Assembly (NCBI GenBank): GCA_963703935.1
Contig: CAVPGA010000009.1
Location: 1,258,998 to 1,322,997 of the forward strand
Length of the DNA stretch: 64,000 nucleotides
Origin: an uncultured Bacteroidales bacterium
GTDB taxonomy: Bacteria; Bacteroidota; Bacteroidia; Bacteroidales; VadinHA17
Reading direction: 5' to 3'
Shown: positions 1 through 37,930 of the stretch, in pieces
How the letters are laid out: every line of letters begins with the position of its first letter
Numbering within the stretch: the first letter of the stretch is position 1
Position numbers and translations under genes: made by a program
Notes under the pieces: generated by a model
The model's database searches: none
Told to the model about the DNA's origin: nothing
Seen by the model: the letters and a program-made list of their open reading frames with translations, nothing else

Positions 1-330
1 AGGAAACTTATGTTCAGTTTTTTACTTTAAGAACTTACACAGAGTTCCACTGAGAAGTCGGCCCCTAAATCCCTGCCTACCGGCAGGCAGGCCCTGAAGG
101 GGACTTAAATTTTAGCCACCTTTAGGTCATAGCCGTCAACTTAAGGTGATGGATACAGGAAAATAGGGAGAGTGTTTAAGCCAAAACTGAATGTAAAGTA
201 CTGAATTTAAGTATTATAACTTTCCCCTCCTTAAAAAGGAGGGGAAATGTAAATTATTGAAAATCACTTGCATACAGTCCATTTCATAAGCTATCCTATT
301 TTTTAGGTTTGATGGAGACCAGGGGCGATT
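1..330. repeat. Mosaic of short hairpin-forming intergenic repeat modules (CACAGAG-type arm, CCCCTAAATCCC...GAAGGGGACTT module, CCTGCC-TACC-GGCAGG hairpin, CCCCTCC...GGAGGGG hairpin)
   Basis: The same word modules recur at 7172-7748, 8931-9190, 11950-12420, 20040-20470, 28240-28895 and 37680-37930. No ORF with coding character. Confidence 0.75.
133..230 (+). repeat. 98-nt repeat with an inverted second copy at 37817..37915
   Basis: Manual alignment of 133-230 with the reverse complement of 37817-37915 gives about 7 differences, including one 1-nt indel. Confidence 0.85.
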
Positions 331-7171: not shown

Positions 7172-7748
7172 GGACTTAGAATAGCCCCCTTTAGGGGACC
7201 GACGTTAAAAAATTGCCGGTGGGCAATTTTAGCGAAGGGGCCAGCCTGCAGGGTAGACCTGTGGTGGGGGTTGGGGGAAACTTAACAGAGTTCCACAGAG
7301 AAATCGTTTACTTTTCAATGGTAGAGGCCGGGCGTTAAATCACCAGCGATTTTGCCCCTAAATCCCCTGAAGGGGACTTAAAGAATAGCCCCCTTTAGGG
7401 GACCGAGCGTTAAAAAATTGCCCGGTGGGCAATTTTAGCGAAGGGGCCAGCCTGCAGGGTAGACCTGTGGTGGGGGTTGGGGGTAAACTTACACAGAGTT
7501 CAACAGAGAGATCGTTTACTTTTCAATGGTAGAGGCCGGGCGTTAAATCACCAGCGATTTTGCCCCTAAATCCCCTGAAGGGGACTTAAAGAATAGCCCC
7601 CTTTAGGGGACCGAGCGTTAAAAAATTGCCCGGTGGAGGGCCGAGCGTTAATAAAACCCCTGTGGGTGTTTTTAGCGAGGAGCCATTGCAGCGATGGTAG
7701 CGAAGGGGCCAGCCTGCAGGGTAGACCTGTGGTGGGGGTTGGGGGCAT
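7172..7748. repeat. Tandem array, about 2.8 copies of a ~205-nt composite unit made of hairpin modules
   Basis: The word GAATAGCCCCCTTTAGGGGACCG starts at 7179, 7383 and 7591. Each unit carries CCCC-CTTTA-GGGG, AATTGCCC-GGT-GGGCAATT and CCCC-TGAA-GGGG hairpins and a CACAGAG-type word. The third copy has an internal insertion and ends at 7745. Confidence 0.9.
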
Positions 7749-8778: not shown

Positions 8779-8930
8779 GGCAGTAATTACTTTATGGTTA
8801 TTGATTAAAATGTCGGGAAAACAAATGAAAGAAACAGGTAAGCATTTTTCCGGGAGTTTGTTTCTTATATAACAACCCGTAAGGCTAAAAGTTCCGGATG
8901 GACCTCAGTGAAGAGTAATATTTAAGGAGG

Positions 8931-9190
8931 GGTGGCCAGACGATGAAATCATCTTACAGGCAGAAACTAAATTCGTCAAGCCGGGGTGGGTGATTCAAAC
9001 CTTTCTTATTCCCTTTATTCAAATTGATAGTAAACACCTCTTTAGCAAGATTAGAGTCATGAAACATAGATTAACCACCCCGGTCGGGAAAGTAAATTGT
9101 AAACCTCTCAAAATCTATGGTCCCGACCACCCCTCATTGAGAAGGAGGGGAAATGTAACATATTGTAAATCAGTTGTATGTAGTTTGTTG
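8931..9190. repeat. Repeat mosaic containing a nearly empty ghost of the DUF559 cassette (8980..9084)
   Basis: GCCGGGGTGG at 8980 and TTAACCACCCCGGT at 9071 mirror the arms seen at 37265/37694. The ~80 nt between them retain a match to the 3' end of the DUF559 gene (GCAAGATTAGAGTCATGAAACATAGATTAACCACC versus GCAAGATTGAGTCATAACATAGTTTAACCACC). The flanking word GCCAGACGATGAAATCATCTTACAGGCAGAAACTAAATTCGTC matches 37705-37750 in inverted orientation. Confidence 0.65.
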
Positions 9191-10755: not shown

Positions 10756-11949
10756 ATGGCTAAAGTTGCAATGCTGGGCGCCGGTTTCATCGGCGATTTT
10801 TACACTTTTTCTATAAACGGTCATCGGAACCGTGATAAAGTGCATATAATTTATTCACGCGATGAAGGCAGGGGCAAAGCTTTCGCAAAAAAACATGGGA
10901 TCCCGAAGTGGACCACCTCAATAAAAGATGCGGTAAATGACCCGGAGGTTGACGTTGTCATAATCGGCTTGCCAAATAACCTGCATCTGGACGCTGTAAA
11001 AAGTGCCGTATCAGCCGGAAAAGCTGTATTCTGCACGAAGCCTCTTGGCAGGAACGCAGGCGAAGCAAAAAAAATGCTTGACCTTGTTGAAAAAGCAGGT
11101 GTTATGCACGGCTATCTCGAAGATCTGGTTTACACCCCGAAAACCCTGAAAGCATTAAGATCAGTAAGAATGGGTGCAGTAGGGCAGGTTACATGGGCCA
11201 GGTCGCGCGAGACACATCCAGGACCGCATAGCGACTGGTTCTGGACAAAGGAAATATCCGGAGGCGGTGTGTTGCTCGATATGGGATGTCATTGCATAGA
11301 GATCAGCCGAAGCTATATAGGTAAAGACATTAAACCTGTCGAGGTGATGTGCTGGACTGATACCCTGGTAAAACCGATTGAAGCTGAGGATAATGCACTG
11401 GGGTGGGTGAGATATGAAAACGGCGCTGTCGGACAGTTTGAAGTGAGCTGGAGCTTTCGCGGCGGAATGGATCTGCGTGATGAAGTGATGGGAACAGATG
11501 GCACAATCTGGGTAAATAATTTTCTCAGGACGGGCTTTGAAATGTTTACTGCCGGTGGGAAAAAAGGCTACGTGGCAGAAAAGGCGGAAACCGAAAGCGG
11601 CTGGCTCTTCCCGGTAGGGGATGAAGTGGTGGAACTTGGTTATACCGACATGTTTACGGATATGTTCAATGCTTTCGAAAATAAGACAAGTCCGGTGGAA
11701 ACCTTCTATGACGGCTATATCGTAAATGAGATAATGGATGCATGCTTCCGTTCTGCCAGATCGAAAAAATGGGAACCGGTGCGTTTGAAAACCTGGCGTG
11801 GAAGTGAAAAAACTGAAAGGATTAATGCACTCCGTGATTTTGACAAGGATCATTTACTTGTAAAAGAAGAAACGATGCCGGATGGCACAGTTAAGCTGAT
11901 CCTTAAAAACAAGACAACAGGAAAGATCTCCAGTACCGTAAAGAACTAA
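10756..11949 (+). CDS. Gfo/Idh/MocA family oxidoreductase
   Basis: N-terminal Rossmann motif [10 protein letters not shown], and a CTKPL motif of the family. 397 aa. Confidence 0.8.
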
Positions 11950-12420
11950 GGCCTCTCAGTATCCTGAATTTTCTCCTCCTTCAAAGGAGCTAAATCCATT
12001 AACCGGAAAGATCGCAAAGGAGTACAAAAAGATCGCAAGGAGCTAATTATTAATGTTTTAACTTTGCATGCTTTGCAACTTCTTTGCGTACTATTATATA
12101 ACTCTTATTATTTACTATCAGAAGGTAACAGTTTTTTTACCACAGAGTTAAGACGGAGTAAAGACGGAGTTGCACTGTTTTAAAACTCCGTGTTTTACTC
12201 TGTGAAACTCTGTGAACTCGTGGTAAAAGGATTTCAGGCAACTCTGTTCCTCCCCGCCTGTTCACCCCTAAATCCCCTTCTATGTGTACTTTTAAAAACC
12301 CCCTTTAGCGGGCAGGGAGTAAACCTATGGTTAAAACTATCGTTGCGCGAAAAAGGAGACTTAAAAGGAACACCCTCCAGAGATTACCAGCCCTTTTTGT
12401 AATAATCGGCCCAACTTATC
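11950..12420. repeat. Repeat mosaic: GCAAAG-type hairpin (12006..12105), CACAGAG/ACGGAGT-type hairpin (12139..12224), truncated CCCCTAAATCCC module
   Basis: 12006-12105 aligns in the same orientation with 28516-28625. 12139-12224 aligns with 28386-28471 in the opposite orientation. Confidence 0.85.
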
Positions 12421-12682
12421 GTTTTTAATTAGTTAGTGAAAAGTAATTACTGTCAGATTCAATTTCCACAGATTTAGTATAGTTGTGTCTGCCAGCATTA
12501 ACCCTGAGCCCTGATGACCTTTTATGCACATACTAAAAGTGATTATAAATCCGGATTACTTCTGATTGGAAAGTGAATAATAATTTCTATAAAATATTGA
12601 ATACAAAATATTTAACCTGTCGGACCAGATGTCCCTGATGAATGTATCAGTTTGACTTATTGAGGGAATAAATCTGCGGTTT

Positions 12683-16919: not shown

Positions 16920-17342
<423 letters not shown>

Positions 17343-19316: not shown

Positions 19317-19615
19317 ATCAGTTTTTTAAGGTTATTTATTGGCAAAGTTCAGCTATCAGAATATCAAAGTCTACCACTTTTGTATCATTTTCTGACAATC
19401 TGGTTACATTTTGAATGGGAAATTGGCCTTAAAGGGGAAATCCGGCGGACATATAAAGCTTGACAGCTCTGCAGGAAGAACTTTATAACTAGTCGTGCTT
19501 TGTCCTACTCAAACAGCATTAGACTATGTCGATGACGGAGTGAGGGCAACGAGTTTTTGTATTTCCCGCAGATACCGCAGATCGATATTTGCCCGTGAAT
19601 GAAGGTTGTAACGAT

Positions 19616-19996
19616 TTATCTGTTATTTTCAAATTCAATTAATTCCACAGGAGCTCCGTCGTGTTCTACCATTGCGACTCTGATCCCACTGCCCGGGGAA
19701 TTTGGTTCTGTCAATACCTTTAAGTTATGTGTTTTAATTTCATGATCTATGTCAGTTACTTCGAAAGCTATATGGGGAGTAGTGCGTATCAGTTTGCTGA
19801 TCGGGCTATCCTTTTCAAATCTCATCCATTCGATACCAAAGGGACTTGTACTGAAACCGGATACATAAAATCTGAATTGCGGCAGGTAAATTTCATCTGC
19901 CAGTTTCCTTCGGGTCGGGATCCCCAGGTGATGGTATTTCCATCCCCATTCAGCAATTGAGGCTGGCGGTTCATGATCCTGTCTGCGTTTTGTCAT
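19616..19996 (-). CDS. VOC/glyoxalase-like family protein
   Basis: 126 aa. YHHLGIPT and APVELIEF motifs fit the VOC fold. Moderate support. Confidence 0.55.
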   Translation of the reverse strand: MTKRRQDHEPPASIAEWGWKYHHLGIPTRRKLADEIYLPQFRFYVSGFSTSPFGIEWMRFEKDSPISKLIRTTPHIAFEVTDIDHEIKTHNLKVLTEPNSPGSGIRVAMVEHDGAPVELIEFENNR

Positions 19997-20039: not shown

Positions 20040-20470
20040 AACACTGCCCACCGGCTCCCTGGTAAAGTTACGTAAACCCTAAAACATAACCGCAAAGTTC
20101 GCAAAGGTTTCAATCCTGAGATCGCAAAGGGGGGGATAGGGGGGAGCTTGGTGTGCTATGGAAATGGCACGGATTACACTCCGCTTCGGTCGTGGTAAAT
20201 CCGCTAAAATTGCCACGGGAATTTTTTAACGCTCGGCCCCCTTAAGGGGATTTAGGGGCAACCTTGGGGGGAAATAAGAAGGAGGAGCTGTGCGGCCAGC
20301 AATGGTAAATTAAGAACTTACACTGAGTTCCACTGAAAAAGTCACAGAGTTCCACAGAGTTAATATGTGACCGTACTCAAAATCACTCTGTGTCCCGATA
20401 GCTATCGGGACTCTGTGAAACCTCTGTGGATCTCTGTGTAAGTTATTATTAAAAGTTTCTTCCAGGGAGT
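20040..20470. repeat. Repeat mosaic with a long CACAGAG-type hairpin (20315..20444) carrying a perfect 18-nt palindrome (20393..20410)
   Basis: The GCTAAAATTGCC...TTTTTTAACGCTCGG...GGGGATTTAGGGGC block is the reverse complement of modules in the 7.2-7.7 kb unit. The arms AACTTACACTGAGTTCCACTG...CACAGAGTTCCACAGAGTT and CACTCTGTG...CTCTGTGAAACCTCTGTGGATCTCTGTGTAAGTT are complementary. TCCCGATAGCTATCGGGA is self-complementary. Confidence 0.85.
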
Positions 20471-26890: not shown

Positions 26891-27162
26891 TACTTTAAGT
26901 TTTTAGTTTTTAATATTCTGTTAAAAGTGGGCTGACGGGATTTTAATCAATTTTTTTCTTTCAAGTTATGAAATTTAAGGATCAGAAATAAATTCTGAAG
27001 TAAATTTCTTGAGGAGATATTCGGCTGCTTTTGAGGAAAGCATGAAAGTTATAAGCTATTGTTAATATTTTCACATAATTGCAGTCCGAAACTGACAAAT
27101 AATTACAATATTTATAGAATGAATTTTAAATTAACTGGTTTTCCCGGGTCTGTTTAAAGTCT

Positions 27163-27263
27163 CCTTTGTGCCCCTTGGTGAGGACCTTTGTGTACTTTGT
27201 GGTATAAAAATAAATCCATTAACCACAAAGGATCGCAAAGTTCAACACAAAGATACACAAAGG
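27163..27263. repeat. CACAAAG-type hairpin element
   Basis: CCTTTGTG...CCTTTGTGTACTTTGTGGT - loop - ACCACAAAGGATCGCAAAGTTCAACACAAAGATACACAAAGG. It ends 6 nt before the nanA ATG. Confidence 0.85.
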
Positions 27264-27268
27264 GTTAA

Positions 27269-28216
27269 ATGGAAGTTAAAAACATCGTTATGTTCAGGAT
27301 ACAAAAATTTGAAGGTCTGGTTGCAGCACCCTTCACCCCGATGGATAAGGACTTACACCTTAATACCGACCTGATACCCAGGTATTATAAATTCCTCGAA
27401 AAGAACGGGATTGCAGGTGCTTTTATAAATGGAACCACAGGGGAGGGGGCTTCGTTGACCCAGAAAGAAAAACAGCTGCAGGCGGAGAAATGGGGTGAGT
27501 GTTACAGGTCGGGTGGTTCTGTCCGTATTATAAACCTGGTAGGGGGAACATGCTACAGTGAGTGCATTGAAAATGCTCTTTTCTCCTTTGAGGCAGGAAT
27601 TTCAGCAATTGCAGTTCTGGCACCCTATTATTTTAAACCTGTTGATGAAAGCCAGCTTGCTGATTTTTGTGCCAGAATAGGCGGATCGGTTCCCCTGATG
27701 CCGGTCTATTTCTATCATGTCCCGATACTTACAGGAGTCAATCTGTCAATGTCAGACTTCCTGGAAAAGATATCTTCAATGTTGCCAAATTTTGCGGGAA
27801 TCAAGTATACGCACGAAGACTTTATGGATTTTCAGTCATGTCTGAATTTCAGGGATGGAGCCTATGATCTGTTATGGGGTATGGACGAAAGCCTTCTTCC
27901 TGCCCTTGCATTGGGATGCAAAGGGGCTGTTGGGAGCACTTACAACTATGCTGCTCCTTTGTACCACACTCTGATTAAGGTCTTTAAGGAAGGAAACATC
28001 GGGGAAGCGCAGAGATTGCAGCAATTATCGATCAACATTATAAGACTTTTGAAGAAGTACGGCGGGTTGGCTGCCGGAAAGGCATTCATGAAATATGCCG
28101 GACTTGATTGCGGGGAATTCAGGTCACCTGTTAAAAACATGACTGCTAAAATGTTTGATGATTTTGTCAGGGATGTGGAAGCTCTTAAGCTGGGATCCCT
28201 GCTTTCTAAAATATAA
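27269..28216 (+). CDS. nanA: N-acetylneuraminate lyase / DHDPS-family aldolase
   Basis: FEGLVAAPFTPM, GAFINGTTGEGASLT, and the Schiff-base context FAGIKYT. An alternative start is at 27290. Confidence 0.75.
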   Translation: MEVKNIVMFRIQKFEGLVAAPFTPMDKDLHLNTDLIPRYYKFLEKNGIAGAFINGTTGEGASLTQKEKQLQAEKWGECYRSGGSVRIINLVGGTCYSECIENALFSFEAGISAIAVLAPYYFKPVDESQLADFCARIGGSVPLMPVYFYHVPILTGVNLSMSDFLEKISSMLPNFAGIKYTHEDFMDFQSCLNFRDGAYDLLWGMDESLLPALALGCKGAVGSTYNYAAPLYHTLIKVFKEGNIGEAQRLQQLSINIIRLLKKYGGLAAGKAFMKYAGLDCGEFRSPVKNMTAKMFDDFVRDVEALKLGSLLSKI

Positions 28217-28239
28217 TCCGGCAATTAACTGGTGTTTTT

Positions 28240-28895
28240 ATCTTATCGGGACTCCGGATTTCACCGTCTGGCCAGGGACTGTTGAAAAAGTTAAAATCCT
28301 TTAACCGCAAAGTCCTTCACCAATGCAGATTAATAGGAACATCAAATTTGATAACTTCATAAAATGAGAATCCTTAAATCCTTTAACCACTGAGTTACAC
28401 AGAGTTTCACAGAGTAATACACGGAGTTTCAAAACAGTGTAACTCCGTTTTTACTCCATTAACTCCGTGGTTCAATAACTAATTATCGTCTTTTTGTATA
28501 TAATATGCGTAAAAGAGTAATATAGTAGAGCGCAAAGGATTTATGCAAAGATCGCAAAGTAGCTAATTATTAACGTTTTAGCTTTGCGTGCTTTGCATGT
28601 TTTTAGCGTGCTACTATATAACTATTTAACATAAATTGCCCCACCTGCTCACCCCTAAATCCCCTAAAGGGGACTTTTAAAAACCCAGGGGCGACGTTAA
28701 AAGCCCGTGGGCAATTAGGGAGGAGCCAGTTTGCAGGGGAGACTGTGGTGGGGGCAGGGGGTAAACCGACGGTTAAAACTCTTAACGATCTTAGACTTTA
28801 ATCCTTCCCCTAAAGTTATTCATTTGATGTTCCCATAATTCATGATGGGTGCCAAACTTTGCGGTTAAAAAAGGCTTTTTCAACAGCCTCAGACA
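28240..28895. repeat. Onion-like nested palindrome: outer arms 28278..28355 / 28815..28887 enclosing hairpins 28386..28471 and 28516..28625 and a CCCCTAAATCCC module block
   Basis: The reverse complement of 28815-28887 (GCTGTTGAAAAAGCC...TTAACCGCAAAGTTTGGCACC...GGGAACATCAAATGAATAAC) aligns with 28278-28355. The inner hairpins were verified arm against arm. Confidence 0.85.
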
Positions 28896-29080
28896 TATTA
28901 AGTGTATTTCTGAAGTGGAGGAGCTCGACGAAGTCAAAATCAATGAATTCTTATGCCTGATTCCCGATAGTCATTTTCTTAAAAATTGTGCCTGTTAATC
29001 AAAACTTAATCAGAAATTAATTCTATCTTAACACATGGAAAATTTCCGAAAGATAAATTTGATAAAGCAAAAACTATATT

Positions 29081-30444
29081 TTGGGTAGCTTCTTGCATAT
29101 TAAGATTATTAGATTTCTGATAAGTAGTATTTTATTATTATCATTCTTCATTCCTGTCTTCTCTGTTATAAATCAGGCTTCAGATTCGGTTAACAAGAGG
29201 GTGACCAGACGTGCCATCAGGGCATCAGACCAGGTCAGTTATAAATCAACAGGCCGATACCGCTAAACAGCTGGCAGCCGATACCGTAATAGCCGATACA
29301 CTCAAAAATCAGACTGCCGATTCTATATTAAACCAGCCGGGCGCAACACTTAAAACTCAGACGGTCGATTCAGTTCTGATTGAGATACCCGACTCGGTTT
29401 TGTCCCTGCCACGAACCTTTAGTGCTGAGGAGCTTACAAGAGGCGAAAGGCTTTTTTACGGCCTCGCTTATCCTGAAGACAGGGGGGTTAGGTGTGTCAG
29501 CTGCCATAATACCCGCCAGTTGGATACTCTGAACTGGAATCCTGATGCGTTTGAGATTTCAGTGAAATACCTGAACAAAAACGCGGCCGAACTGAAAAAA
29601 GTCCTTCTAAGACCTGCCGGTAAGAAGATGACTGAAGTCCACAATGGATTCCAGCTCACAAATGAAGATATCCTTCTGATCAAAGGGTATATGGACAGGT
29701 TTGTTGATATCGGGATTAAACAAAAAAAGCCTGTTGTAACGAATCTCCTGTTACTTATAATATCTTCCGTCCTGCTTTTTATCTCCCTGACCGATGTTGT
29801 CATTAAAAAGTTATTCAGGAACAAGAATATCAACAGGATAATAATTCCAGTCACATCGGTTGTTATTACGTGGATCCTCGCTGTCAATGCAATTGCATTC
29901 GGACGGGCAACAAATTATTCTCCGGATCAGCCAATAAAGTTTTCTCATGCTGTTCATGCCGGGCAAAACCAGACAGATTGTAATTTATTGCCATTATTCT
30001 GCGAGATCCAGCAAGACTTCGGGAATTCCACCCGGAAATGTCTGTCTGAATTGTCACTTCCTTGTAAAAAGCGGAACCCGGTCAGGTGTGACCGAGATCA
30101 ATAAACTGACAGGTGCTTTTGACAGCGGGAAGGCAGTGGAATGGGTCAGGATCTACAGGTTTCCGGACTTTGTTTTCTTTAGCCATGCACAACATGTAAC
30201 TGCAGGGGGAATTGCCTGTGAAGCATGTCACGGTGATGTAAAGACTATGGACAGGCTCCGGCAGGTGCCCAACCTTGGAATGGGCTGGTGTCTGAAATGT
30301 CATGATTCAAGAAAGGTTAACCTCGGTAACGAATACTATAAAACTTATTTTTCAAGCTTTTACGACTCTTTACAGGCAGGTAAAATCGACAGTGTGACCG
30401 TGTCTGTCACAGGAGGCAGGGATTGCGGAAATTGTCATTATTAA
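29081..30444 (+). pseudogene. actA: ACIII multihaem cytochrome c subunit ActA, about two frame breaks
   Basis: Six CxxCH motifs (CVSCH, C-N/YCH split by the break, CLNCH, CEACH, CLKCH, CGNCH) and a central TM helix. An extra T in AATTTATTG near 29985 separates HAGQNQTDCN from YCHYSARSSKTSGIPPGNVCLNCH. The signal-peptide ORF (29081) and the body (29211) are in different frames. Confidence 0.8.
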
Positions 30445-37157: not shown

Positions 37158-37264
37158 GGACCATAGTGTTACGATTCATCCTCTTGTACCTTCTCAAAGG
37201 AACGAGGATAGGCCAGGTTATGAAATCGAATTTATTATCTGGCATTTACCTGTTTTCATTTCCC

Positions 37265-37708
37265 GGCCGGGGTGGTTAAACTATGTTATGACTCAATCTT
37301 GCCTGAAAAAACTTCTTTATCTCTTTTAAAACGAATTCGGGATACTGGAACACAAACCTGTTCTCAAATCTGAGTACGGTGAATCCTAGGTCTTCAAGAT
37401 ACTTGTCCCTGATTGTATCTTTCCATACCTGCACAGGCACTCCCATGAAGATCTCCATCAAGCTCAATTATCAGTTTCTCCGACGGACAATAGAAATCAA
37501 ACTATATACTTACCGATACTGTGTTGTCTTCTGAATTTTCTGCCATCAAGATTCTTTGACTTTAACTTATTCCATAAAACAGCTTCTGCAGATGTGGAGT
37601 TATTTCTCAGAGATGTCTGGGAGGTTTTAAGCTTTTTAGGTTTAAGAGGTGTTTACTCTCCATTTGAATAAATGGTACTAAGAAAGACTTGAATTAACCA
37701 CCCCGGCC
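37265..37708. repeat. Perfect 15-nt inverted repeat (GGCCGGGGTGGTTAA at 37265..37279, TTAACCACCCCGGCC at 37694..37708) bracketing the DUF559 gene
   Basis: Read directly. The left arm contains the DUF559 stop codon. Confidence 0.9.
37276..37660 (-). pseudogene. DUF559 (Vsr-like endonuclease fold) domain gene, at least two frame breaks
   Basis: The minus strand reads SLRNNSTSAEAVLWNKLKSKNLDGRKFRRQHSIGKYIV, then DFYCPSEKLIIELDGDLHG, then WKDTIRDKYLEDLGFTVLRFENRFV, in three frames. Confidence 0.75.
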
Positions 37709-37930
37709 AGACGAATTTAGTTTTCTGACTGTAGATGATTTCACCGTCTGGCACTGTGAATCCTTGAACTTCGTGATAACTTTGGTGGCATAATCATCCC
37801 AGATCACGTATTAAAAGGAGGGCGAAAGTTATAATACTTAAATTCAGTACTTTAAATTCAGTTTTGGCTTAAACTCTCTCCCTATTTCCCTGTATCCATC
37901 TCCTTAGATTGACGGTTATACCCCGAGGCC
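37680..37930. repeat. Repeat mosaic (GCCAGACG...CGTCTGGC hairpin, inverted copy of the 98-nt repeat at 37817..37915)
   Basis: See 133-230 and 8931-9190. Confidence 0.8.

Follow-up and report, generated by a model that had tools for sequence, protein, structure and literature searches.

Insertion sequences (IS) of the IS110 family target repetitive extragenic palindromic (REP) sequences, and their bridge RNAs covary with their targets (PMC11208160). In the account available from the same source, the family member IS621 inserts into REP sequences of E. coli under the guidance of its bridge RNA (PMC11208160; Choi et al. 2003 as cited there). AG is present at both ends of ISPpu9, a small palindrome lies close to its left end, and a derivative of it, MITEPpu9, resembles a MITE, or miniature inverted-repeat transposable element (PMC12288879). 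The recombinase of ISPpu10 acts in trans, and a stem-loop beside its target adds specificity (bioRxiv 10.64898/2026.03.19.712850). Inverted REPs also occur in mosaic clusters, namely bacterial interspersed mosaic elements (BIMEs) and REPINs (PMC12288879, PMC3733652). Here we describe a nested palindrome at positions 28240-28895 of a 64-kb stretch of DNA (64,000 nt, below called the window) from an uncultured Bacteroidales bacterium, in the spacer between nanA and actA. It is probably a palindromic repeat of about 158 nt, here called H, with one transposase-less derivative of an IS110-family element, here called X, in each of its arms.

This anatomy was resolved from 10 loci that share a pattern common to both arms, seven full-length IS110-family relatives, and 15 copies collected from metagenomes without regard to their target. 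The conclusions rest on 323 kb of related loci, whose numbers carry the prefix L. In the window, both arms of H are interrupted, each immediately 3' of its outermost heptamer, TTAACCGCAAAG, at the mirror-image positions 28312^28313 and 28856^28857 (a caret marks a junction throughout). The plus-strand insert, X+, has the junctions GCAAAG^T and GTAG^AGCGCAAAG, both identical in L012 and L014, and the insert in opposite orientation, X-, has on the minus strand the junctions TTTAACCGCAAAG^T and GTAG^CACGCTAAAA. Each insert, read on its own strand, thus has the form TTTAACCGCAAAG^T ... GTAG^(A/C)(G/A)CGC(A/T)AA. Excising both restores a palindrome (-44 kcal/mol and z = -9.0 for a 160-nt version), and the H that is left, of 158 nt, is 74-77% identical to other H copies. 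The parts are listed in Table 1.

Table 1. Parts of the nested palindrome as interpreted here, with two neighbouring features given for context.
Feature	Position	Strand	Description
H left terminal arm	28273..28312	+	Terminal inverted repeat (A)GGGACTGTTGAAAAAG, head motif AAATCCTTTAACC, first heptamer GCAAAG; ends TTTAACCGCAAAG, the final AG being the presumed recombination core
X+	28313..28528	+	216 nt, non-autonomous IS110-family derivative
X+ left end	28313-28357	+	T, small hairpin CCAAT..ATAGG, then AACATCAAATTTGATAACTT; aligns with left ends of full-length IS and other X copies
X+ cargo	28358-28508	+	Second head motif AAATCCTTTAACC at 28376-28388; CACAGAG/ACGGAGT hairpin, ~28384-28466
X+ right end	28509-28528	+	...AAAAGAGTAATATAGTAG; terminal letters ...GTAATATAGTAG; 19/20 bases as in the L012 right end
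H core	28529..28610		Inner GCAAAG/CTTTGC arms and loop; centre of the GCAAAG hairpin first described
X-	28611..28856	-	246 nt, second non-autonomous IS110-family derivative, opposite in orientation to X+
X- right end	28611-28630	-	Complement of ...AAATAGTTATATAGTAG; 18/20 bases as in the L012 right end
X- cargo	28639-28766 + 28767-28812	-	G-rich CCCCTAAATCCCC module in 28639-28766
X- left end	28813-28856	-	Complement of TTTGGCACCCATCATGAATTATGGGAACATCAAATGAATAACTT; in the left-end alignment; ~80% identical to the L006 IS left end (counted by hand)
H right terminal arm	28857..28892		CTTTGCGGTTAAAAAAGGCTTTTTCAACAGCCT; pairs with 28273-28312
nanA	27269..28216	+	DHDPS family, PF00701, E=4e-44; homologues named N-acetylneuraminate lyase (JGI); context, outside the element
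Conserved upstream block of act operon	29005..29210	+	81% identical to L001:10947-11225; contiguous with downstream gene; context

The palindrome was first recognised from the sequence alone, and the features given in that preliminary description were all found at, or within a few bases of, the positions assigned to them. Self-BLAST pairs the outer arms, 28279-28357 with 28813-28886, over 79 nt at 72% complementarity (E=3e-7). Their core (28300-28347 and 28822-28869) is 77% complementary over 48 nt in an inverted-repeat search, and their tips (28279-28290 and 28875-28886) match at 12/12 positions. Between them lie the CACAGAG/ACGGAGT hairpin (~28384-28466), the GCAAAG hairpin (28502-28637), whose arms are complementary at 74% over 35 nt and whose inner pair is at 88%, and the G-rich block CCCCTAAATCCCC, which starts at 28652 within a module spanning 28639-28766.

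The folding check proposed at that stage was carried out on the 656-nt stretch 28240-28895, using 20 dinucleotide-preserving shuffles in each of three runs. As DNA, the stretch folds at -116.9 kcal/mol, compared with -66.8 +/- 5.7 for the shuffles (z = -8.9); as RNA, z is -9.7 for the plus strand and -12.4 for the minus strand. It therefore folds far better than its shuffles on both strands, and 0/20 shuffles matched the real fold in any of the three runs. A fold of this strength on the plus strand, in a region directly after a stop codon, is what would be expected of a large structured RNA, either a 3' untranslated region or terminator of nanA or a non-coding RNA, in which the fold is selected at the RNA level. 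However, the opposite strand folds as well or better, an Rfam search of the locus gave no match at E<=1, the region is missing from a syntenic relative, and all of its parts are dispersed repeats that occur at unrelated sites. An RNA origin is thus extremely unlikely. That both strands fold alike, and that Rfam has no match, points to a palindrome at the DNA level rather than an RNA gene.

H is a REP/MITE-like palindromic intergenic repeat of ~150-158 nt, frequent among uncultured Bacteroidales of soil and sediment. Its ends are inverted repeats, it has a AAATCCWTTAACC head, and each arm contains 3-4 CGCAAAG heptamers. The simplest example is L008:7228-7380, a plain 153-nt palindrome with the same termini and no insert. 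The left arm of H in the window (28273-28312) pairs with 28857-28892 and is homologous to the ends of this simple H and of the H copies in L002-L011, and the core contains a further inverted repeat (28543-28559 and 28582-28598, 88% complementary). A classical MITE, also considered for H, has terminal inverted repeats plus a target-site duplication and is related to a DDE-type IS. The inverted termini of H are clear (GGGGCTRTTGAAAAAG / CTTTTTnAACAnCCCC), and the eight copies read show no consistent flanking duplication. Like BIMEs and REPINs, these loci are highly structured intergenic mosaics in which a small set of repeat modules recurs in different orders and orientations, and they serve as IS landing sites. 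In contrast to REPs and BIMEs, which are RAYT-associated and built on a palindrome of 20-40 bp, H is ~150-158 nt long with heptamers spaced about 10-13 nt apart (no RAYT turned up, although none was searched for), and the GTAG that might recall a REP tag belongs here to the right end of the IS. As a landing site for IS110 elements H plays the part of a REP, but we do not class it as a REP. A search limited to the available literature found no description of H or X in Bacteroidetes.

Two other interpretations of these repeats were considered and rejected. The motif AAATCCWTTAACC is not the generic head of every hairpin or a MITE terminus; it is a part of the H terminus, adjoining the IS target. 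Nor are the ~300-nt elements of L002-L010 single MITEs with three internal hairpins, since comparison with the simple H and with L012 resolves them into H plus X.

The window has a second H copy, at 11975-12340. Its head, at 11992, reads TTAACCGGAAAG, differs from the target by one mismatch, and is unoccupied. In the right arm is an X of the X+ subtype in minus orientation, with a right end at 12091-12102 and an ACGGAG/CACAGAG hairpin at 12140-12225, followed by a G-rich module but no recognisable left end; it is 75% identical to 28372-28594 over 228 nt. From its sequence, it looks like a truncated and immobile copy.

The identity of X was read from full-length elements (L006, L012-L015, L021 and L022, together with an aberrant copy, L016), the others being reached through homologues of the L006 recombinase. 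There are 765 such homologues, and PF01548 is present in all of the matches listed. In L006, an open reading frame (ORF) lies ~175 nt beyond the X left end and has a DEDD_Tnp_IS110 domain (PF01548, read through, E=1.3e-18). L012 is a full-length element within an H copy, with PF01548 (E=8.7e-21) together with PF02371 in a second frame (E=3.2e-6, at 27.9 bits where the cut-off is 21.3). Its left junction reads AAATCCATTAACCGCAAAG^TCCCCC..GGAACTTCAA..ATAACTT, the element beginning at AAATCCATTAACCGCAAAG^TCCCCCTCCTACGGAAAAGGTAGGAACTTCAAACTTAATAACTT, and its right junction reads ..AGTTATATAGTAG^GACGCTAAGG, the element ending in ...AAAAGAGTTATATAGTAG^GACGCTAAGG, after which the remainder of H follows. 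About 220 nt at its left end are non-coding (the ~45 nt shared with X and ~175 further bases), and its right end is ~45 nt long. L013, L014 and L006 have the same arrangement, L013 and L014 in other H copies, and the L013 insert follows the third heptamer of its arm. The second ORFs of L021 and L022 are annotated as PF02371.

X is 190-250 nt long and has no transposase; of the IS it retains only ~45 nt from the start of the left end and the terminal ~20 nt of the right end, and for this reason we regard it as an IS110-family derivative. The left terminus, of 45 nt, includes a small hairpin that covaries, and the right terminus reads ...GTTATATAGTAG. Across 19 aligned left ends there are invariant blocks, with the small hairpin kept through compensatory changes (CCCAT/ATGGG, CCTAAT/ATTAGG, CCTGA/TCAGG, CCTAC/GTAGG, CCCAG/CTGGG, GGGAGTT/AACTCC). 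Both window inserts keep the two termini of the parent, lack recombinase and bridge RNA, contain no ORF of more than 50 aa, and belong to a family with many copies at the target of the parent, as expected of a non-autonomous derivative. In being bounded by an IS's left and right regions around some other cargo they resemble MITEPpu9, the difference being that MITEPpu9 carries the small RNA gene ssr9, and X carries a repeat-type hairpin or a G-rich module.

In five of five full-length relatives (L012:1900-2410, L015:1590-2120, L016, L021, L022) the DEDD and PF02371 domains are in different frames, and the switch occurs in an A-rich stretch that encodes a lysine-rich linker (KKKxKKK). Such a conserved split suggests programmed frameshifting or transcriptional slippage, and not a sequencing error. 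A further observation concerns L012, where a SAM riboswitch (RF00162, 71 bits) lies at 2621-2734, just 3' of the IS-bearing H, so that such elements can be seen to adjoin regulatory leaders.

On this basis the locus can be redivided. The 75-nt arms first described are the H terminus (~35 nt) plus the X left end (~45 nt). The GCAAAG hairpin first placed at 28516-28625 is the two X right ends on either side of what remains of the core of H. The CACAGAG hairpin and the G-rich block are cargo inside the X elements, and are not separate insertions into the outer hairpin at this locus.

The same architecture was found elsewhere by means of a pattern made from the blocks common to both arms (TTAACCGCAAAGT, 16-28 nt, GGAACATCAA), which occurs at 10 loci in 7 metagenome-assembled genomes (MAGs) of uncultured Bacteroidales (L002-L011). 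An arrangement of ~270-330 nt recurs in them: an inverted terminus with TTAACCGCAAAG; a T, the small hairpin and AACATCAA...ATAACTT; the cargo; TTATATAGTAG; and finally GCAAAG/CTTTGC arms, at the end of which come CTTTGCGGTTAA and the other terminus. The cargo is the CACAGAG hairpin in L002, L003, L008, L009 and L010, and the G-rich module in L007 and L011. L007 provides a direct comparison of filled and empty sites, as it is on the same contig as the simple H of L008. Without its 253-nt X, whose boundaries are exactly CCGCAAAG^...GTAG^GTCGCAAAG, it is 91% identical over 153 nt to L008:7228-7380, and no bases are duplicated beyond the core. The core itself, in the form ...AG^T....GT-AG^N, is found on both sides of the insert in L012, L014, L015, L021, L022, L007 and the two copies in the window, and the target is duplicated no further. 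It appears to be AG; that of IS621 is CT.

Metagenome contigs were then scanned with a pattern limited to the left end, giving 25 matches, among them 15 true left ends whose upstream sequence could be read. Each of these 15 lies directly after the first heptamer beside a TTAACC (or TTTACC) head, and none lies in a loop. The heptamer is mostly CGCAAAG, with CACAAAG in three or four copies and variants in the rest. Most of the copies in which a right end was found have a cargo of 107-109 nt, which points to a homogeneous and widespread MITE-like X family. The outer flanks differ among the 10 loci and the 15 metagenome copies. One soil-metagenome contig has 28300-28405 with 2 mismatches behind another H terminus. 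This suggests that the X+ type moved recently, the contig carrying, to judge from its flank, a paralogous copy. Public sequencing runs contain only fragments of the locus, in low-depth soil contigs; these are paralogous copies, and include no empty site.

These observations bear on how the target is chosen. The preliminary description proposed that hairpin elements had been inserted repeatedly into the loop of a pre-existing hairpin, with a target preference for loops or single-stranded DNA. The nesting, and insertion into a hairpin already present, are borne out, but the sites are in the stem and not in the loop, and the supposed preference is not supported: both breaks are in the stem beside a specific heptamer, and the target is best explained by a guide-matched sequence. 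In its general form this alternative envisages independent hairpin elements, inserted one after another by machinery of the IS200/IS605, PATE or REP/RAYT type (RAYT, REP-associated tyrosine transposase). Such small structured elements do sit within others in nested MITEs and IS200/IS605 elements. The modules recur in other orders and orientations in the window (1-130, 7172-7745, 11991-12340, 20202-20450), the G-rich module lies between the arms of a CACAGAG hairpin in a few places (L001:9806-9978; L005), and X has a covarying subterminal hairpin. However, the outer layer contradicts the idea, as both of its breaks are in the stem; the enzyme associated with these ends is a recombinase of the DEDD/IS110 type and not a Y1 transposase; the interior hairpins are inside units bounded by IS ends; and of the seven G-rich blocks just 2-4 lie between arms, too few to show an excess in loops. 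We therefore consider insertion by loop-preferring machinery very unlikely. IS200/IS605 and PATE elements use a Y1 transposase and insert 3' of a short motif by way of single-stranded hairpin ends; these insert in a stem, at a guide-matched site, and their junction sequences too point away from that class.

The full-length relatives suggest what directs them there. A segment of the left-end RNA equals the left flank of the target joined to the first IS base, and it varies with the target (CGCAAAGT, CACATAGT, CTACTAAGT, ATTAGAGT). The guide ATCGCAAAGT, in L012, L013, L014 and L006, goes with the target ...CGCAAAG^T; ATCACATAGT, in L015, with AACACATAG^T; CTTACTAAGT, in L021 (Sunxiuqinia rutila), with CTACTAAG^T; and AAATTAGAGT, in L022, with ATTAGAG^T. 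The donor-side motif ACCGTATAGTAGA is invariant and matches the right end TTATATAGTAG, also invariant, the donor segment being CCGTATAGTAGA against TTATATAGTAG. The consensus fold of the left-end RNA has compensatory changes in 8/17 pairs. Covariation of guide and target, together with a matching donor motif, is the signature reported for IS110 bridge RNAs (PMC11208160), and from its sequence the left-end RNA of the full-length relatives is accordingly taken to be a bridge RNA. A search of the IS left ends against Rfam gave no matching model.

Among the copies found independently of the target, the left end follows a hairpin-arm heptamer or a short guide-matched sequence in 6/7 places of IS found through their protein, in the 15 metagenome copies and in the two window copies; none is in a loop. 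The choice of target is best explained by sequence, through an IS110 bridge-RNA guide, and not by a general preference for loops or single strands. L016 also follows CGCAAAG^T, without the bridge-RNA region. This copy (1430-1510, 2890-2925) has the usual left-end start and a right end beside CGCAAAG, with only ~75 nt from the left end to the ATG; it is at the same place in contigs of several samples, and its protein is on 11 contigs. It may be an immobilised copy.

IS621 is among the closest known systems. The full-length relatives of X have a recombinase with DEDD (PF01548) and PF02371 domains, a long non-coding left end, a short right end and a short core at both junctions; they occupy one specific sequence within a palindromic intergenic repeat, and a segment of their left-end RNA changes with the target. 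In contrast to IS621, the window has only transposase-less derivatives, the hosts are uncultured Bacteroidales, and the target repeat, with its tandem heptamers, is a palindrome of ~150 nt instead of a 35-nt REP. The bridge-RNA fold here is partly resolved and matches no Rfam model, and the recombinase frame is split in all relatives examined.

Several observations count against this interpretation. There is neither an IS110 recombinase gene nor a bridge-RNA motif in the 64-kb window, and the donor-guide motif is absent from the locus. The window left ends are only ~60-64% identical overall to that of L012, the similarity being mainly confined to the blocks GGAACATCAA and ATAACTT and to the hairpin position. 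The right-hand target guide gives partial matches only, and three of the unbiased metagenome copies have AA, AT or AG^C at the junction in place of AG^T. L002-L011 were selected with the target beside the left end in the pattern, and so are unusable for target statistics. Inserts in both arms are seen at this locus alone, and the origin of the hairpin and G-rich cargo is not explained.

The doubly filled state raises the question of whether the palindrome could have arisen from one element at the DNA level, by inverted duplication, template switching or conversion of the arms, or whether it is a single 620-nt MITE with long terminal inverted repeats. In favour of this, the arms are symmetric over ~75 nt, the two strands fold equally well, and no second copy of either set of junctions is available from the window's genome. 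On the other side, the X left ends are only ~72% complementary and their hairpins are of different subtypes (CCAAT/ATAGG and CCCAT/ATGGG), the cargos are unrelated (hairpin and G-rich module), each half matches independent single-insert copies elsewhere, and no other twin arrangement is found in the 323 kb of related loci. A single-element origin is for these reasons very unlikely. Two independent insertions explain the structure better than a duplication, given that the left-end subtypes differ and the cargos are unrelated.

On the basis of these observations, we suggest the following history. The H palindrome would have been present first in the nanA-actA spacer. Two copies of X would then have entered it, one per arm, with recombinase and bridge RNA assumed to come in trans from an autonomous copy at another place in the genome. 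An excised X circle would recombine into TTAACCGCAA-AG, leaving the AG core on both sides, and excised circles of X or IS would carry a right end-AG-left end junction, …TATAGTAG^TCC…. Because H is a palindrome, it presents the same target once per strand, at mirror positions, and both of these would have been hit independently, by two X subtypes with different cargo. The 158-nt hairpin would in this way have become a 620-nt 'onion', with outer 75-nt arms formed by the H terminus and the X left end. On this view the locus consists of three selfish elements in two layers, a common form of nesting in selfish DNA, and gives no evidence that hairpin loops are entered.

Mobilisation of X in trans is assumed by analogy with MITEPpu9 and ISPpu10 (PMC12288879; bioRxiv 10.64898/2026.03.19.712850). 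The elements of Pseudomonas putida are also comparable in inserting into REP pairs (REPs and BIMEs) that form long stem-loops, in the AG at both ends of ISPpu9, and, for ISPpu10, in a recombinase acting in trans with a target-side stem-loop in recognition. The last point leaves room for the palindrome to add structural recognition beside the sequence, as in ISPpu10, though not in the loop. They differ in that here both arms of one palindrome are filled, in mirror orientation, and that the Bacteroidales elements are known from sequence alone.

The orthologous spacer was compared in the closest relative, L001 (ENA sample ERZ25039545), whose NanA is 82% identical and in which DUF3795, AHSA1, nanA and then act-type genes have the same order. 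The conserved block CTTAATCAGAAATTAAT... (window 29005 on, 81% identical) starts ~19-27 nt after the nanA stop in L001, but ~790 nt after it in the window. The whole ~790 nt (about 28217-29004) is thus missing from the L001 spacer, which shows that the structure is lineage-specific. The comparison of related spacers envisaged at the outset has therefore yielded a spacer without any of the layers. L001 holds the same repeat families at other, non-syntenic sites, including an 89%-identical copy of the window hairpin upstream of nanA. These repeats are gained and lost within the time separating the two genomes.

The flanks of H (28217-28272 and 28893-29004) contain no sequence repeated in the related loci except a 16-nt match to GGATTTCACCGTCTGG. 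Outside H, within the sequence missing from the relative, is a weak inverted pair (28244-28257 and 28956-28969; 14 nt, 86% complementary), also not repeated in the related loci, which may be due to chance or be a remnant of an older layer.

The significance of the locus is that it adds a Bacteroidales case of IS110 elements and their miniature derivatives in palindromic repeats, in an unusual, doubly occupied state. An 'onion' palindrome becomes a readable history with a known enzyme class and shows that both strands of a palindromic target can be filled; the mechanism is corrected from loop to stem, with targeting by sequence. The relatives add natural examples of guide and target covariation, and are a source of pairs for work on bridge recombinases. 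The results are also useful in annotating repeat-rich MAGs, as such loci break assemblies, and several of the recovered contigs end inside these elements. It is conceivable, if rather doubtful, that the heptamer arrays of H (GCAAAG, CACAAAG, CACATAG, CACAGAG and others) and this IS110 clade form a co-evolving system in soil Bacteroidales, with heptamer dialects matched by guide dialects. H would then provide multi-copy, double-sided and safe landing pads, short elements made up of left end, cargo and right end would ferry other hairpin repeats from pad to pad, and RNA-guided recombination, rather than DDE or Y1 transposition, would be the main engine by which hairpin repeats spread in these genomes.

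Regarding the neighbouring genes, those 3' of the spacer in L001 match the cytochrome c, Fer4, NrfD and ActD families. An operon of the alternative-complex-III type is thus a reasonable reading, as is the label nanA-actA spacer. From their positions, the promoter of the act operon would be inside the conserved block 29005-29210, and the insert, sitting between the nanA stop and this block, would disrupt no function. The first gene after the spacer (29211-30444) is split into overlapping ORFs, 29211-30104 and 29947-30444, due either to a frameshift or to an assembly error; in L001 there are likewise two overlapping calls at that gene (11035-11625 and 11582-12445).

Just 5' of nanA (27150-27268) is a hairpin of the CACAAAG type with a central head motif and an unoccupied TTAACCACAAAG target at 27219-27230. 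The same site in the relative (L001:9806-9978) holds a CACAGAG hairpin whose loop contains two CCCCTTCAGGGGATTTAGGGG modules. The site upstream of nanA appears to be a recurrent landing place.

Other repeats in the window are of different kinds. At 7172-7745, directly after the end of a gene, is a tandem array of ~208-nt units, each consisting of a G-rich module (CCCCTAAATCCCCTGAAGGGGACTT ... GGTGGGGGTTGGGGG) and half a CACAGAG arm; two nearly identical copies are accompanied by a third, rearranged one. Another family has ends ...CCGGCCGGGGTGGTTAA, and is found at 37254-37752, 8921-9187 and 129-284 of the window and at L001:6424-6638 and 19407-19648. A 16-18-nt piece of it, GGATTTCACCGTCTGGCC, is found immediately outside H, at 28257-28274. 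A decayed gene interrupted by stops lies between inverted copies of the family at 37283-37693 (minus strand); by eye it resembles a DUF559-type endonuclease (…LIIELDGDLHGS…, …LGFTVLRFEN…). The idea that the inverted repeats of 37254-37752 flank a RAYT gene was rejected on the basis of this reading. Finally, a tRNA-Pro gene (16920-16995) is followed by two tandem units of ~177 nt (to 17345), each opening with a copy of the tRNA 3' end, AATCCTGCCACCCCGAC, and containing terminator-like hairpins, and there is a third copy of the 3' end at ~17327. These look like att-site-type duplications left by integrating elements.

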